A stretch of 64,000 nt of DNA, from contig JABHXF010000028.1 of NCBI GenBank assembly GCA_018657385.1, positions 1,472-65,471 of the forward strand, read 5' to 3'. Source of the DNA: Candidatus Woesearchaeota archaeon (GTDB lineage Archaea > Nanobdellota > Nanobdellia > Woesearchaeales > DSVV01). This document shows, piece after piece, positions 12,361 through 58,574 of the stretch (position 1 is its first letter; the number at the start of each line of letters is the position of its first letter). The position numbers were made by a program, and so were the translations under genes. A model generated the notes under the pieces. That model had not been told where the DNA came from. It searched no databases and saw nothing but the letters and a program-made list of their open reading frames with translations.

Positions 12361-12395
12361 AAAAAATTCAGTAGCTACATGTCCTCCGGACCTAG
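12361..12395 (-). terminator. GGACCTAG box (conserved small hairpin plus oligo-T), copy 1
   Basis: The minus strand reads CTAGGTCCGGAGGACATGTAGCTACTGAATTTTTTC. This is the only copy not placed after a co-directional stop codon. Confidence 0.35.
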
Positions 12396-12461
12396 TTTAT
12401 GAAAAGTTAAACAAATTTTCTCATAAAATATATAAAGGAGTTATAATCTTAGTTAGTTAAA

Positions 12462-22613: not shown

Positions 22614-22712
22614 TTTTTTTTACCTTCTTTACCTTTAAACATATTTTATTCTTAAACATATTTTTCTTTGTTTTTTACTTTTTAATATCACTTTCTTCTT
22701 GTAATACAACAA

Positions 22713-22775
<63 letters not shown>

Positions 22776-27686: not shown

Positions 27687-27753
27687 GTTTTGGTTTTGCG
27701 AAGTAAAAACAAAGCTTGCTAAGGCCATGATTTAGGATTGTTTTGATTTTGGG
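27687..27753 (-). promoter_or_regulatory. 65-nt promoter-upstream conserved block (family 2, copy 1)
   Basis: The minus strand reads CCCAAAATCAAAACAATCCTAAATCATGGCCTTAGCAAGCTTTGTTTTTACTTCGCAAAACCAAAAC and is followed directly by a TTTATATTT box. Confidence 0.55.
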
Positions 27754-27824
27754 AGGTTATATTTATTTAAAATCTGATAATATACCTGGATGAAAAAATA
27801 ATAACAATGGTCAGGCGAACATTT

Positions 27825-27901
27825 AAATCCAACAACATGGCCGGGCGAGGCGAAGCCGAGTAGGACTTTAGTCCGTCCGTGCCGTGGTTGTTGTTGGATT
27901 T
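27825..27901 (+). ncRNA. Family 1 structured element, copy B
   Basis: It has the same outer stem and P1 as copy A. P2 is GGC-GAA-GCC, a compensated version of ACC-GAA-GGU, and P3 is shortened to GGACU-UU-AGUCC. Confidence 0.65.
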
Positions 27902-27943
27902 ATTGTTAATATACTAAGTGTTAATATACTAAGAAAAAAAAGA

Positions 27944-27974
27944 AAATCACGGGAAACACGTCCTCCGGACCTAG
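27944..27974 (-). terminator. GGACCTAG box, copy 2
   Basis: The minus strand reads CTAGGTCCGGAGGACGTGTTTCCCGTGATTTTCTTTTTTTT, starting 17 nt after the stop of the 27991-28728 gene. Confidence 0.45.
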
Positions 27975-27990
27975 TAAAACAAAAAAGAAA

Positions 27991-28728
27991 TTATGCCTTT
28001 GGTTTTTGGGCTAATACACACATTAAACCATTTAACAAAAAGCTAGAAACAACATTTAAACCTAACAAAATAGTCATGTCTGTACCTACAAAAATTAATG
28101 TGTAATTTAGCATTAATACATACGCCACAACAGTAATAGCCACTGATAAGAAAGGCATCATTCTTAATAATAATGATATTGGTTTTGATGAAATTACGAA
28201 AAAAGTAACAACCAAACTAAAATAAGCAGGCATCATAGTCATTATTATCTTAACTAAACTATGATCAGTACTCATACCCATGAAAAGAACAAATACTGAT
28301 AATACAAATATTGAAAATAATAATACTAGGCCAGAAGGGAATACAGTGGTAATTGGATGATCATAATCTACTACTTTTCCTTCTTTGATTAATTTTATTG
28401 CTTTATCTATCATGTCTTTGTGATGACCTGATCTAAGTAAAGCACTTTTAATTGCACTTGTAGAATATCCATTTTTTAACTGCTTTTGCATGTAATCCAC
28501 TAACATGTTTTGAATATAGAAATACATTTCCTCAGTCATATCTTTCTTTGTTGAAATTTGTTTGTGTTCTGGTTTTAGATTACCTAGATTACTAACAACA
28601 TGATCAACTAATTGTTTTTTATAACCATATTTAAAAAGAGCAGTTTTAATATCTTCAAGATCATAACCCTGTTCAACCTCAAACTTAACATAACTTGTTA
28701 AGTGCTTAATTAGATATTCTTCTTGCAT
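27991..28728 (-). CDS. Membrane protein with duplicated N-terminal soluble module (hypothetical)
   Basis: 245 aa. Two similar about 60-aa segments (GYDLEDIKTALFKYGY and GYSTSAIKSALLRSGH) are followed by about four TM segments. Confidence 0.5.
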   Translation of the reverse strand: MQEEYLIKHLTSYVKFEVEQGYDLEDIKTALFKYGYKKQLVDHVVSNLGNLKPEHKQISTKKDMTEEMYFYIQNMLVDYMQKQLKNGYSTSAIKSALLRSGHHKDMIDKAIKLIKEGKVVDYDHPITTVFPSGLVLLFSIFVLSVFVLFMGMSTDHSLVKIIMTMMPAYFSLVVTFFVISSKPISLLLRMMPFLSVAITVVAYVLMLNYTLIFVGTDMTILLGLNVVSSFLLNGLMCVLAQKPKA

Positions 28729-31251: not shown

Positions 31252-31395
31252 TTAAGTTGAGAAGATGAGATAATATTAAAAGTTTGTTAATTTTATAGGG
31301 TGGTGGGTGGGGGCTCCTAGGGGGATGGTTAATCTTTTCTCACTAATATTTATAAAATTAAATTACATTAAAACAAAATTAGTTTAAAATAAAAT

Positions 31396-31430
31396 AAAAA
31401 ATTCATGAGCTATATGTCCTTCGGACCTAG
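31396..31430 (-). terminator. GGACCTAG box, copy 3 (no adjacent family 1 core)
   Basis: The minus strand reads CTAGGTCCGAAGGACATATAGCTCATGAATTTTTTATTTTATTTT, starting 36 nt after the PEP carboxylase stop. Confidence 0.45.
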
Positions 31431-31466
31431 TGTAGAAAAACTAATAGAAAAAAGAAAAAAATAGAT

Positions 31467-32999
31467 TTATCCAATAAATCCCCTAATAGAAGCTGCCCTT
31501 GTTATTAATTCAGTAAATGATTCTGTGTCTTGTATACTTGATTTCTTTAGTTCCTTCATTATAGCAGTGGTTAGTTGTTTATGTTCTTCATTTATTTCTA
31601 ATTTTGATGATCCTGATAAATCCATTATTCCAATTTTTTCAAGTGCTGAATTAACACCTTCTTTAATCTTTAATGGCAAAAATTCTAAATTATCTTTATT
31701 AAAATACCTCATTGCATTTTCTAAGTCATAATCAAGATTAGCATAACATGTTGATTTTAAATAGTCAATATCTTTTGAATCTAAAGCATTTAATCCTAAA
31801 ATCTCAGGAGGCAGACCTATGGAGTAGAGGGCGCAACAAAATTTGATTGCTCTTGGCAATTGAATGTTATCATTTGCTCTACTATAACCAAATAAACCAA
31901 TATGTAATTTTCTTTTTCTTCTTAGAGGAACAAAATTAGAAATATTATTAATCATTTCTGCCAATAATCTAATTTGTTTCTTATATTCCATTGAAACTTT
32001 TTCTATAATCTTTAGAATTTTTTCTTCCTCTAAAAAATGTGGCTTTTTTTGTTTAGTATTATTGATTATTTCAATTGCTTTTTTTGTTTTTTCTAGTGGT
32101 TGATCATACTTAAAAGAAGATTGTAAAGTATAAGTTTGAACTGAAGGATAACCCCTCATAATTTGTTCAGCAGTATCTGGTTTAAAATTACCTCGAAATG
32201 GAGAACTGCCGCAACCAAAGATAGGAAAAATATCAACAGATGTTTTTTCTTGTAATTTATGAAGTTTTACTAATGCTAATTTGTTTAATAAGATTGCAGA
32301 TAATGAACTATAATTAAGAGCTGGATCACTTCTTGCCAACCAAACTCTTTGATGATCTTTAATTTTTTGTATTTTTATATACTCTTCAGCAATTTGATCT
32401 ACTTTTAGCATGCTGTTTAAATCCTCAACTAATGGTGTTACTCTTATTGATTTTGGATTAAAGTTGCCAAGCCATTTCCCAATATTTATATCATTGTTTA
32501 ACAAACTTATATCTTGAACACCTGCTACATGTTTTTCATAATATTTTGCAACCCTAGCAATATCTAAAGCAGAACTAGTCATTGGAACATATACTTCACT
32601 TATAGGAGGGATATTAATTTTACTAGTTTTAGAACTAGCTTTGTAAAATTTAAACGCTGTATCACAATATCTTGGGATTGTATTCAAAACCTCAATTACA
32701 ATCTTTGCTTCTATTTTCTCAATATTGGGATTTGGAATTCTAAAAGATAATATCTTGTCCTTTCCTAAAATATTTCCCATAAAATAATCAGGATACTTGG
32801 TAAAAAGTTTTTTTATTATAAAGTTATCTGCTTCCTTACCTTCATAATCAAATAATTGTTCCTGACAATTTAAAGTTGAAAAAACATAATAAGCTTCATC
32901 AATTTCATCTTCTCCATTTAAAACTGAATTATCTGAGAAAATAGGAGAATGCACATTATCAGGATGTTGTGTTGACATAGTTCTAGGTATAAATGACAT
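31467..32999 (-). CDS. ppcA: Archaeal-type phosphoenolpyruvate carboxylase
   Basis: 510 aa. The N-terminus IPRTMSTQHPDN is the hallmark of the short archaeal PEPC family. Confidence 0.8.
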   Translation of the reverse strand: MSFIPRTMSTQHPDNVHSPIFSDNSVLNGEDEIDEAYYVFSTLNCQEQLFDYEGKEADNFIIKKLFTKYPDYFMGNILGKDKILSFRIPNPNIEKIEAKIVIEVLNTIPRYCDTAFKFYKASSKTSKINIPPISEVYVPMTSSALDIARVAKYYEKHVAGVQDISLLNNDINIGKWLGNFNPKSIRVTPLVEDLNSMLKVDQIAEEYIKIQKIKDHQRVWLARSDPALNYSSLSAILLNKLALVKLHKLQEKTSVDIFPIFGCGSSPFRGNFKPDTAEQIMRGYPSVQTYTLQSSFKYDQPLEKTKKAIEIINNTKQKKPHFLEEEKILKIIEKVSMEYKKQIRLLAEMINNISNFVPLRRKRKLHIGLFGYSRANDNIQLPRAIKFCCALYSIGLPPEILGLNALDSKDIDYLKSTCYANLDYDLENAMRYFNKDNLEFLPLKIKEGVNSALEKIGIMDLSGSSKLEINEEHKQLTTAIMKELKKSSIQDTESFTELITRAASIRGFIG

Positions 33000-33471: not shown

Positions 33472-33556
33472 CTAGGTTCGGAGTACTTTCAAACTTGTTT
33501 GGAAGCTCAATAATCTCGATGAAGTAGGGATTATTTTTGCGTATTTCCCGTGACTT
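33472..33556 (+). terminator. GGACCTAG box, copy 4 (degenerate and split by an about 50-nt insertion)
   Basis: The plus strand reads CTAGGTTCGGAGTAC ... TTTCCCGTGACTTTAATTTTT, starting 31 nt after the 76-aa ORF stop. Confidence 0.35.
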
Positions 33557-40136: not shown

Positions 40137-41135
40137 ATGATAGTCTTAGGGATTGAATCAACTGCACATACATTTGGAATTGGTATTGTAAATGATTCTA
40201 GAAAAGGAGAAAAGAAAGTATTAGCTAATGTTAAAGATACTTTCACAACTAAAAAAGGTGGTATAATCCCTGCAAAAGCAGCTGACCACCATGTTGATGT
40301 ATGTGATATTGTATTAAAAGATGCTTTGGCTATTGCTAAACTTAAATTAGAAGATGTTAATGTTATTGCATATTCTCAATCACCAGGAATTGGACATTGT
40401 TTAAAAATAGGAGCAATGTTTGCGAGAAGTTTGTCTGCTAAATACAATAAACCTTTAGTTGGAGTGAATCATTGTATTGCTCATTTGGAAATAGGAAGAC
40501 TTGTTACTTCTGCTAAGGATCCTGTTTTATTATATTTGTCAGGAGCAAACACACAAGTAATTGCATATGAAGGAAAAAAATATAGAATATTTGGAGAAAC
40601 TTTAGACATGGGTATTGGTAATTTCCTTGATAGTTTTGCAAGAGATTTAGGTTTAGGTTTTCCAGGTGGACCTGTTGTTGAAATATTTGCTAAAAAAGGA
40701 AAATATGTTGAACTTCCTTATTCTGTGAAAGGTATGGATATGAACTTTGGTGGAATGCTTACTAATCTTAAACAAAAAATTAAATCTGGAAAGTATAAGA
40801 AAGAAGATTTATGTTATTCTATTCAAGAAACTGCTTTTGCAATGATGGTTGAAGTTGCAGAAAGAGCTCTTGCACACTGTGATAAAAAAGAATTATTATT
40901 AGGTGGCGGAGTCGCATGTAATAAACGATTACAAGAGATGTGTAATAAGATGTGTAAAGCTCGAGGAGCAAAAATGTTTGTACCAGCTAATGAATTCCTT
41001 GTAGATAATGCAGCAATGATAGCTTGGCTTGGTTTATTACAGTTTAAAGCTGGTGATAAGTTGAAGATAGAAAAAGCAGATATTAAACCTTATCTAAGAA
41101 CAGATGAAATTGAAGTTAAATGGCGAAAAGATTAA
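40137..41135 (+). CDS. kae1: tRNA N6-adenosine threonylcarbamoyltransferase Kae1
   Basis: 332 aa. It starts MIVLGIESTAHTFGIGIV, and GVNHCIAHLE carries the metal-binding His pair. It has the ASKHA fold. Confidence 0.9.
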   Translation: MIVLGIESTAHTFGIGIVNDSRKGEKKVLANVKDTFTTKKGGIIPAKAADHHVDVCDIVLKDALAIAKLKLEDVNVIAYSQSPGIGHCLKIGAMFARSLSAKYNKPLVGVNHCIAHLEIGRLVTSAKDPVLLYLSGANTQVIAYEGKKYRIFGETLDMGIGNFLDSFARDLGLGFPGGPVVEIFAKKGKYVELPYSVKGMDMNFGGMLTNLKQKIKSGKYKKEDLCYSIQETAFAMMVEVAERALAHCDKKELLLGGGVACNKRLQEMCNKMCKARGAKMFVPANEFLVDNAAMIAWLGLLQFKAGDKLKIEKADIKPYLRTDEIEVKWRKD

Positions 41136-41149
41136 TTCTTTGTTTTTTA

Positions 41150-41181
41150 CTAGGTCCTGAGGACATGTTTCCCGTGATTTT
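41150..41181 (+). terminator. GGACCTAG box, copy 5
   Basis: The plus strand reads CTAGGTCCTGAGGACATGTTTCCCGTGATTTT, starting 14 nt after the kae1 stop and followed by AATTTTT. Confidence 0.45.
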
Positions 41182-41214
41182 AATTTTTCATTAGTTTTAT
41201 TACGTTAATAGAAA

Positions 41215-49666: not shown

Positions 49667-49689
49667 CAATTACATTATAAGAAAAAATA

Positions 49690-49722
49690 AAAATCCAATA
49701 GCTACATGTCCTTCGGACCTAG
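49690..49722 (-). terminator. GGACCTAG box, copy 6
   Basis: The minus strand reads CTAGGTCCGAAGGACATGTAGCTATTGGATTTTTATTTTTT, starting 36 nt after the stop of the 49759-50088 gene. Confidence 0.45.
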
Positions 49723-49758
49723 ACATTGTTGTAAACAAAAAAAAGAATTAAAATAAAG

Positions 49759-57154: not shown

Positions 57155-57200
57155 ATTGGTTTTGATTAGTAAATAAATAAGAATAAATTTTTAAAAAATT

Positions 57201-57233
57201 AAAATTCCTGAGAAACACGTCCTCCGGACCTAG
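57201..57233 (-). terminator. GGACCTAG box, copy 7 (no adjacent family 1 core)
   Basis: The minus strand reads CTAGGTCCGGAGGACGTGTTTCTCAGGAATTTTAATTTTTT, starting 51 nt after the hydA stop. Confidence 0.45.
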
Positions 57234-57284
57234 TTAAAAAAAACAAAACATAATAAAACAGAATTAAAAATAAATAATCAACTT

Positions 57285-58574
57285 CTAACTTCTTTCAATA
57301 TCCCATTCTAAGAAATGAGAACTACAACTAAAACAAGGATCATATGCTCTAATCAACATTTCAACCTGTCTTTTCAATACTGATTCTGGCTTATTTAATA
57401 AACTAGGAATCATTAATTTGAGATCTTCTTCCATCTGTTTTAGATTCTGAGCAGTTGGTGTTATTATATTAGAATGTCTACAAAATCCATCTTTACTAAT
57501 AGTATAATCATGAAGCAATAAACCTCTAGGGGCTTCTGTTATTGCAACTCCCCTACCTGCTTTTACTTTATAATCAACAACATCTTCTTGTTTTGGTTTT
57601 AGTGTTTCTAAAATCTCAATAATCCTATCAAAGCTATGTAAAACTTCTACTGCTTGTGCAATATTATTATGATATGGATTTTCAAAATCAATCTTGTTTA
57701 GATATTTGCTAGCATCTTTTGATAAGCTATTTCCATTAACTTGTAATCTTGCTAAAGCACCATTAAAAAATGGTTTTCCCTTATACAATACAACTTTTGC
57801 TGTGGAACCTTTTTTTACATGTTCATCAAATATAGTATTATAATCTTTTTCTTGGAAACATATACCACCAACACAATTAATCTTTCCCTTATGGAAAGAA
57901 TGTGTTTTATTAGTTAATCCAAAAGCTTGTGTTTCTCTTTTGAAGTTAGGGTATTTTAATTTTGCAAATAAATCAACACTTGCTTTTGCAAGTTTTTTTG
58001 CTTTCTTAAACTTAATTAATAGATCTTTTAATCTCTCTTTTTCAGGAATCTTTGAAAAGCCACCAACAACAGCTGTAATTGGGTGGATTTCACGACCACC
58101 AACAACTGTAACAAGTTCATTACCTAATTTTTTTAAGTTTAGGCCCATCAAAACCTTGTCTTTATGTTTTGAAGCCATTGCAATTGCACTTTCATAACCA
58201 AAATAATCTGGCATAGCTAATAAACAAAGATGCATAACATGATTTTGAATAGTAGTCCCATATAATAATAAATCTCTTAAAACATCAGTTTGTTTACTTA
58301 CTTTAACACCAAATGCATCTTCTGTTGCCATTAATGAAGTAATAGCATGAGAAGGACTGCATGTCCCACATATTCTAGAAGTTAAAGGACTTAATTCAGT
58401 ATATTTTCTACACATAATAAGACTTTCAAAAAATCTTGCACTTTCATAAACATCAAGTTTAACTCTTTTTAATTTGTTTTTTTCTATTTTAATACTAAGC
58501 TTTGCATGGCCTTCTATCTTAGTTATGTGATTAAGTTTGATTGTTTTATTTCCTTTTGTTTTTATAAGAGCCAT
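57285..58574 (-). CDS. hydA: [NiFe] hydrogenase large subunit, group 3b (sulfhydrogenase alpha)
   Basis: 429 aa. The N-terminal motif is RICGTCSPSH (RxCGxC), and the C-terminal Ni-binding motif is DPCFSCSSH (DPCxxCxxH). Confidence 0.9.
   Translation of the reverse strand: MALIKTKGNKTIKLNHITKIEGHAKLSIKIEKNKLKRVKLDVYESARFFESLIMCRKYTELSPLTSRICGTCSPSHAITSLMATEDAFGVKVSKQTDVLRDLLLYGTTIQNHVMHLCLLAMPDYFGYESAIAMASKHKDKVLMGLNLKKLGNELVTVVGGREIHPITAVVGGFSKIPEKERLKDLLIKFKKAKKLAKASVDLFAKLKYPNFKRETQAFGLTNKTHSFHKGKINCVGGICFQEKDYNTIFDEHVKKGSTAKVVLYKGKPFFNGALARLQVNGNSLSKDASKYLNKIDFENPYHNNIAQAVEVLHSFDRIIEILETLKPKQEDVVDYKVKAGRGVAITEAPRGLLLHDYTISKDGFCRHSNIITPTAQNLKQMEEDLKLMIPSLLNKPESVLKRQVEMLIRAYDPCFSCSSHFLEWDIERS

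Follow-up and report, generated by a model that had tools for sequence, protein, structure and literature searches.

The window analyzed here, a 64,000-nucleotide stretch of a Candidatus Woesearchaeota archaeon genome, contains a short box, GGACCTAG, that recurs close behind stop codons and can fold into a small hairpin. It raises the question of what kind of element would take up such a position: a preliminary description of the same DNA had suggested a protein-recognized terminator, a processing site, or one end of a mobile unit that also includes a second repeat, the family-1 core.

Copies of the box in the window

A search with the pattern ACAYGTCCTYCGGACCTAG, allowing at most one mismatch, yields six copies in the window, with none expected in shuffles; GGACCTAG likewise occurs six times against 0.39 expected. 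A seventh copy, GTACTCCGAACCTAG, is interrupted, and the preliminary count of seven stands as six canonical copies and one interrupted, genuine member. Modules are given below on their gene-sense strand, which is the opposite of the strand matched by ACAYGTCCTYCGGACCTAG (e.g., module 27939..27980 on the minus strand, pattern 27956-27974 on the plus strand). The module under study, with its parts and the neighboring core, is laid out as follows.

27939..27980, minus strand: module under study (sequence, pattern match, covariance-model hit G000:C54:29410-29451)
27976-27990: T-run 1, reaching the stop codon of the 245-aa gene at 27991
27971-27974, minus strand: CTAG tag
27967-27970 and 27960-27963, minus strand: stem halves
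27964-27966, minus strand: GGA loop
down to ~27944, minus strand: tail RTGTTTCCCGTGA
27925-27943: T-run 2
27825..27901, plus strand: family-1 core AAATCCAACAAC...GTTGTTGGATTT, a separate repeat family (sequence)

The remaining members in the window are:

12361..12401, minus strand: GTCC-GGA-GGAC, tail ATGTAGCTACTGA (pattern at 12377-12395, plus strand; covariance model)
31395..31436, minus strand: GTCC-GAA-GGAC (pattern at 31412-31430, plus strand; covariance model), no family-1 core, G-rich repeat on the far side
33472..33554, plus strand: interrupted variant CTAG-GTTC-GGA-GTAC with 55-nt insert and tail GTATTTCCCGTGA (GTACTCCGAACCTAG at 33472-33486, minus strand)
41144..41185, plus strand: GTCC-TGA-GGAC (pattern at 41150-41168, minus strand; covariance model)
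49684..49728, minus strand: GTCC-GAA-GGAC (pattern at 49704-49722, plus strand), T-run 1 displaced
57198..57239, minus strand: GTCC-GGA-GGAC (pattern at 57215-57233, plus strand; covariance model), no family-1 core

The distances from stop codon to CTAG are:

245-aa gene: 16 nt
PEP carboxylase (31467-32999, minus strand; Pfam): 36 nt
76-aa zinc ribbon (Pfam): 31 nt
Kae1 (kae1, 40137-41135, plus strand; Pfam): 14 nt
109-aa gene: 36 nt
NiFe hydrogenase large subunit (57285-58574, minus strand; Pfam): 51 nt

On the ORF list, six of the seven copies do follow a stop codon by 14 to 51 nt, as had been described; the exception is the copy at 12377 (module 12361..12401), which has no gene converging on its CTAG side and only a weak T-run 1. 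The identities given to the upstream genes (ppcA, kae1, hydA, and the zinc ribbon) agree with Pfam, the T-runs after the box on the opposite strand are present, and five copies have a family-1 core beyond the box, which is missing at 31412 and 57215. In the interrupted copy, the 55-nt insert parts the hairpin from the usual tail, which resumes at 33541-33554. The insert itself (33487-33540; in gene sense, TTTCAAACTTGTTTGGAAGCTCAATAATCTCGATGAAGTAGGGATTATTTTTGC) splits the box between hairpin and tail, and three diverged copies of this split box exist in the genome (contigs C19, C33, and C54); either it spread after insertion or it represents a longer subtype.

Architecture of the module

Across the genome, the box is the commonest form of a repeated hairpin module of ~45 nt that reads, in gene sense, T-run, A, CTAG, a 3-4 bp stem, a GNA loop, the returning stem, RTGTnnCnnnnGA, and a second T-run. 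The consensus of 48 copies, in the sense of the incoming gene, is a T-rich tract of ~10-20 nt, A, CTAG, GTCC-GGA-GGAC, RTGTTTCTnnnGAA, and a T-rich tract of ~10-15 nt. In this consensus, T makes up 70-90% in the 9-12 positions before A-CTAG, with T in at least 80% of copies across the last 9 positions, and again 70-90% in the 10-15 positions past the tail. The consensus accordingly contains the archaeal oligo-T signal, i.e., at least five T on the sense strand shortly past the stop codon. The tag is nearly invariant, with occasional CTGG, CCAG, and TTAG variants. Rarity of CTAG was considered as what makes the tag remarkable and was rejected, the avoidance of this tetranucleotide being only mild (observed/expected 0.86).

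A search defined by the flanks alone recovers other stems (GGC/GCC(+A), GCC/GGC, GGAC/GTCC, GAC/GTC, and GCCC/GGGC), and the box is hence one subtype of a larger family. The loop on the gene-sense strand is GGA, GAA, or GTA, certain copies in the congener described below having GTTA or GTCA instead, and variants with G.U pairs in the stem keep their pairing only on the gene-sense strand. Several other readings of the conserved sequence were tried and set aside: a second hairpin in the tail (CAUG...CAUG), the halves of which show no covariation; K-turn and bulge-helix-bulge structures, which on inspection are missing the required GA pairs or outer helix; and a coding role, for which the plus orientation gives ...KHVLRT* and the sense orientation holds GGAGG and ATG, with no conserved ORF in evidence.

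Covariation and stability of the hairpin

When inserts were chosen by their flanks alone, the hairpin formed in 90 of 106, compared with 10.9 after insert shuffling. An alignment of 114 modules gave 42 double-change cells against 10.5 in shuffles, a value that none of 500 shuffles reached; this alignment was pre-filtered for pairing, and the flank-selected test is the unbiased one. The covarying stems are GTCC/GGAC, GGC/GCC, GCC/GGC, and GGAC/GTCC, with pair 13-20 being CG in 73 modules, GC in 28, and AU in 6. Throughout the 114-module alignment the closing C-G pair is nearly invariant, and the loop is fixed as GNA on one strand. Given the flank-selected pairing and the excess of double changes over shuffles, the small hairpin is under strand-specific structural selection, as a single-strand structure on one defined strand.

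The same hairpin is weak as RNA: the singlet folds at -4 kcal/mol with z = +0.6, no better than shuffled sequence, and its stem lies 13 nt from the second T-run. An invariant tag and tail combined with a very weak stem point to probable recognition by a protein rather than to thermodynamic strength. Further, C-GNA-G and C-GNNA-G correspond to the "mini-hairpin DNA" motif, which has high stability in DNA form and far less in RNA form (PMC13037366, PMC3201870). The analogy hints that the module may act on single-stranded DNA.

These properties also bear on a further reading, namely that the box encodes a small RNA or is bound, as double-stranded DNA, by a dimeric regulator. The high conservation of the sequence and the near-palindromic form of GTCCnnnGGAC would be in keeping with it. 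Against an RNA gene, Rfam returned no match at the gathering score for the whole window and none even at E <= 5 for 27750-28050, and a conserved promoter is absent upstream; against a regulator site, stems change (two of four pairs swapped) and the loop keeps its strand-specific GNA, unlike a symmetric double-stranded site. Half of the copies, moreover, are in convergent gaps and so have no gene to regulate. We regard this reading as highly improbable.

Genome-wide number and placement

The genome (G000) amounts to 1.54 Mb in 60 contigs with 28.9% G+C, its DNA coming from marine/seawater metagenomes, and gene calls for placement were simple longest-ORF calls of at least 70 aa, 88% of the sequence being coding. 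A search with nhmmer finds 48 boxes, and modules of all subtypes number ~57-65. Only 3 of 65 module copies fall inside ORF calls, and ~4% of genes carry a module.

Placement relative to genes is far from random. For 34 of the 48 boxes, the stop codon of a gene entering from the CTAG side is at most 65 nt away, whereas random intergenic placement gives a mean of 7.2 and a maximum of 16 in 5,000 trials. At any distance, a gene reads into the CTAG side of 40 of 48 boxes (binomial p = 3e-6). This figure is partly due to an enrichment in convergent gaps, where either orientation has a gene reading in: 60 classifiable modules divide into 32 in convergent, 25 in tandem, and 3 in divergent regions, which account for 15%, 51%, and 34% of intergenic length, respectively. 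In tandem gaps, boxes show an orientation split of 14 to 6. T-runs are everywhere in this 29% G+C genome, with 2,614 T6A runs inside genes, and ordinary intergenic T6A runs offer a baseline for the module: the sense-3' orientation is found in 52 of 62 modules of all subtypes versus 47% of such runs, and a position within 65 nt of a stop in 44 of 62 versus 31% (p ~1e-9). A preference for T-runs alone does not account for the 3' bias, and selection for a function behind this placement is possible. The bias seen in the window thus holds across the genome in the sense orientation and extends to related lineages.

The few copies away from 3' ends still have the T-run before A-CTAG. In one divergent promoter region, a T-rich tract and a TATA box kept in the sister species have a box and a core of family 1 between them. 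A canonical archaeal promoter block, CACAyAAGATTTATATATAAAAAC...GATAATGGGAGA, is common to both species (G000 C55:74093-74381 versus G001 C14:63224-63342), and the box and core are inserted directly upstream of it in G000 C55:74093-74381 only, not in G001.

Distribution, dimers, and turnover

The only close relative in the species collection is a congener, Candidatus Woesearchaeota archaeon SI074_bin25 (G001), with ~70-80% protein identity between the two species. Among 41 family and order genomes, the exact box has 34 matches in this genome, 18 in the congener, and 0 in the 39 others; covariance-model hits number 57 and 56 in the two species and 0 across a further 26 family members. When the genomes of all species were scanned, 12 stretches came up, of which 11 belong to the congeneric MAG and the last is a stray Bryobacterales hit. 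Among metagenome contigs, at least one more lineage shows the order stop, T-run, ACTAG, and the viral contigs gave no module match. By these sequence matches, the module family is confined to one genus of Woesearchaeota (DPANN). The congeneric population is also represented by a 922-kb metagenome contig, Ga0209142_1000002 (L124, L151, L156, L161), which is near chromosome length and 99.8-100% identical to G001.

Modules turn over quickly between the two species. Any-subtype modules are present at 8 of 27 syntenic sites going from this genome to the congener and at 11 of 39 in the reverse direction, often with another stem subtype, and the shared fraction of syntenic sites is ~30%. The convergent gap behind kae1, filled here by 41144..41185, is 38 nt and repeat-free in the sister species; conversely, two dimer-bearing convergent gaps of the congener correspond to 25 nt or to overlapping genes in this genome. 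The flanks of filled and empty sites are too diverged between the species to define a target-site duplication or exact junction.

At shorter range, a strain 98.5-99% identical to this genome has a GGC-GAA-GTC module and ~1 kb of extra DNA at a site where this genome has GTCC-GGA-GGAC. The two are identical through a shared mutant TTAG tag and diverge immediately past it, which hints that module exchange may happen at the tag. The extra ~1 kb (L136:10560-11640 versus G000 C11:10650-10745) comprises a gene of ~190 aa, two family-1 cores, and two further modules; such intergenic mosaics are hot spots of strain-level rearrangement. Four DNA runs of the same population, which hold the same strain in contigs that break at repeats, caught no insertion polymorphism. 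An 87-nt "skip" beside the copy at 41150 was considered as a polymorphism and not trusted, its sides extending only 25 nt within repeats.

A MITE is marked by terminal inverted repeats and a target-site duplication. Singlets of the module are without terminal inverted repeats; besides them, the module forms dimers in which the arms are inverted repeats. Most copies in the congener are ~105-nt heterodimers with an inverted GGC-type arm and a GTCC-type arm around a central hairpin; they fold at -51 kcal/mol (z = -10) and are bordered by an A-run and, at the opposite end, a T-run. Their CTAG tags lie inside; this genome, for its part, has dimers that carry the tags on the outer side.

The module and transcription termination

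One explanation of the 3' placement is that the module is a dedicated, protein-recognized terminator or 3'-end processing signal. Polymerase passing T-run 1 would transcribe CUAG, hairpin, and tail, and a bound factor would set the 3' end at the second U-run; alternatively, the hairpin might shield the mRNA from 3' exonucleases. The sense-oriented 3'-end bias, stronger than that of ordinary T-runs, is consistent with such a role, as are the T-runs on both sides of the unit, the restriction of G.U-compatible stem variants to the transcribed sense strand, the recurrence of the order stop, T-run, ACTAG in a third lineage, and the resemblance of the congener dimers to bidirectional intrinsic terminators.

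However, the T-rich tract of ~10-20 nt already lies ahead of the hairpin, and as this long T-run precedes it, most transcripts may end before the hairpin is reached. In archaea, U-tracts and aCPSF1 drive termination (PMC8716108, PMC7515710), which does not need a hairpin (PMC8716108). The singlet hairpin, feeble as RNA and 13 nt before the second T-run, would be poorly suited to the task, and its C-G-closed GNA loop is a DNA-stability motif, not especially stable as RNA (PMC13037366). The low share of genes that carry a module (~4%) and the copies with the same T-run in divergent promoter regions argue in the same direction. That the box is a required terminator is contradicted by the sister species, where orthologues often do without it, their gaps being 25-38 nt or the convergent genes overlapping; even in the near-identical strain, the module is missing or replaced by another subtype. 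Judging from these comparisons, the module is dispensable at several individual genes and is not a general stop signal. Overall, we hold a dedicated terminator or processing signal to be unlikely. Sister species and strains in which the same genes either have or lack the module provide a natural test of whether hairpins play a part in archaeal termination.

Three metatranscriptomes of the same study contained no transcripts of the organism, the high-depth matches falling only at an (ACTT)n microsatellite. This is a perfect repeat of ~16 units at 22711-22775 of the window, and the matches there reflect the simple repeat, not expression.

Family-1 cores and the intergenic mosaic

The other explanation in the preliminary description made the box one end of a family-1 unit; in its fuller form, the box would be the terminus of a ~170-nt composite mobile unit. 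In 22 of the 48 boxes, a core does lie at 68-91 nt in one fixed orientation, and sub-groups have near-identical spacers, which indicates that core-box composites are copied as units. Yet 22-23 boxes have no core within 250 nt, 3 have it inverted, one case among the 48 has the core on the other side of the box, and ~80 of 102 cores are without a box. The box also pairs with its sister subtype in core-free dimers of its own, adjoins other repeat families, and in one place is parted from its core by an inserted IS200-like element, so core and box are separable. The census largely refutes the box as a family-1 terminus, which we consider very unlikely.

Elsewhere, boxes adjoin a G-rich repeat, the AACAGGCCGnnAGGCTCTTTTTGTT hairpin-plus-T5 repeat, or a facing module of the sister subtype, and intergenic DNA is a mosaic of repeat modules. 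The AACAGGCCGnnAGGCTCTTTTTGTT repeat is a second 3'-end module family of ~30 copies with a hairpin and T5 (e.g., G000 C25:11325-11550, L136:10750-10775), of which 21 of 29 non-ORF copies lie a median of 28 nt past the stop of a gene reading in. The G-rich family, GGGTGGGTGGTTGGGGG...TAGGGGGGAT, is found at 31320-31360 of the window and at G000 C1:48700, C2:28560, and C8:13500, often beside boxes, and it can take the post-T-run position held by a box in the sister species (L011 versus C1:34720-35285). For annotation, it matters that the modules and their companion families account for most intergenic G+C-rich islands in this lineage and that they are not small RNA genes.

Candidate mobilizing enzymes

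The genome has a single hit to the Y1 transposase family (PF01797), which is of the IS200 type (108 bits against the IS200 model) and scores 37.7 bits against the RAYT model, the cutoff of which is 80. In the two MAGs, which are 90-92% complete, no RAYT-type enzyme was found in either and no Y1 transposase in the congener. A box lies 114 nt from the 3' end of the Y1 transposase gene. The gene belongs to an IS200-type element, GAACCTTGGTTCC...CATAGGTTTTTACTTT, the ends of which could be defined from three contexts; the element is inserted directly after two different family-1 cores, a box lies 40 nt outside its right end, and the hairpins at its ends differ from the box. The transposase was considered as the mover of the adjoining box and rejected, given that the box lies outside the IS, that the IS ends are unlike it, and that TnpA is missing in the congener.

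The IS is itself of note. It measures ~650-700 bp and codes for TnpA only (164 aa; G000 C3:37170-38031 (L013); L119:2010-2700, L120, L121), and the presence of identical TnpA in at least two genomic contexts marks it as a mobile IS. Two different family-1 cores adjoin its left end (...TGTTGTTATT|GAACCTTGG...), a sign that the element may target the 3' edge of these repeats, much as REPs are the targets of some bacterial IS elements.

An IS200/IS605-like mechanism acting on the lagging-strand template would predict a strand bias. No replication-strand bias is apparent, the sense strand agreeing with GC skew in 54-56% of singlets versus ~65% of genes, nor is there a sense-strand bias relative to the local majority gene strand; on these fragmented assemblies, both are weak tests.

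A probable REP/REPIN-like repeat family

Within genomes, the module multiplies and is swapped; its copies are found as singlets, inverted dimers, and mosaics with other repeat families, and those that persist sit directly behind a post-stop oligo-T tract with the gene sense strand as the active strand. Taking these findings together, we propose, as the probable explanation, that these extragenic repeats form a non-autonomous, REP/REPIN/BIME-like family, with the box as its main subtype. A single-strand-specific enzyme would recognize the tag and mini-hairpin and join at them, copying or swapping the unit. Copies would survive mainly in 3' regions, above all convergent ones, because promoters are not disrupted there. 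Once in place, a sense-oriented unit would add a hairpin and a second T-run and may reinforce or insulate termination, a role that has been proposed for bacterial REP/BIME elements (PMC2817692, PMC3733652). From its sequence, a back-up terminator role for the module is plausible. A bolder version, which we offer tentatively and think unlikely, is that this is the first REP/REPIN-type system described in Archaea, one working without RAYT, in which an enzyme of single-stranded DNA cuts and rejoins the CTAG tag and its C-GNA-G DNA mini-hairpin right after the tag, the host retaining the module behind genes as a portable, oriented terminator cassette of hairpin and oligo-T against read-through.

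Comparison with known systems

Of the known systems, two share some features with the module. Like bacterial intrinsic and archaeal oligo-T terminators, it takes a post-stop position with T-runs, and the congener dimers, with A-run, -51 kcal/mol hairpin, and T-run, match the bacterial form. It is only these dimers that do so; in singlets the hairpin is weak, its sequence is conserved, and 13 nt separate it from the T-run. The IS200/IS605-derived PATEs and the hairpins recognized by TnpA offer a strand-specific hairpin and singlets without long terminal inverted repeats; PATEs also share an oriented placement by a short sequence feature, and an IS200-type TnpA is present in this genome. Unlike in those systems, the ends of the resident IS have other hairpins and the box lies 40 nt outside it, no replication-strand bias is seen in the weak test available, and the congener has the repeats with no TnpA found.

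A different parallel is suggested by the mini-hairpin d(C-GNA-G) of ssDNA priming signals and phage N4 virion-RNAP promoters (PMC13037366). The closing pair and loop rule are the same (GGA, GAA, and GTA; GNNA in some), and the CCGAAGG and GCGAAGC cores occur literally in modules. Those hairpins, in contrast, each serve as one functional site on the ssDNA of a phage or plasmid, whereas the modules are dispersed chromosomal repeats, and no link of the module to priming or a phage polymerase was found here.

It is with the bacterial REP/REPIN/BIME elements (PMC3733652, PMC2817692, PMC3116915) that the likeness is most extensive. REPs are characterized by a terminal tag and by their occurrence as singlets, head-to-head and tail-to-tail dimers, and heterodimers of different stems (PMC3733652, PMC2817692). 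Shared with them are a short G+C stem-loop that carries an invariant four-base tag on one side, an extragenic copy number in the tens to hundreds, a lineage-specific sequence, singlets alongside inverted dimers of both polarities and heterodimers of unlike stems, mosaic clusters, location at gene 3' ends, and rapid turnover between relatives. On the other side, the module resides in a DPANN archaeon; it is tagged by CTAG rather than GTAG or CGTC; the stem has 3-4 bp rather than 5-13 bp; the loop is fixed as GNA, and a conserved 13-nt tail and a built-in T-run are added; and no RAYT gene was found in either genome. The module fails strict REP membership on its CTAG tag, 3-4 bp stem, and lack of a RAYT, yet it is REP-like in every structural and population respect tested. 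Among the top ten literature matches on DPANN and MITEs, judged by title and abstract, none concerns such a repeat, and no paper on one turned up for Woesearchaeota. REPs, REPINs, and their domesticated transposases have been treated as bacterial; a RAYT-free repeat of this kind in DPANN raises the question of which enzyme moves it, and a tagged-hairpin repeat in such a host would widen the picture of these systems.
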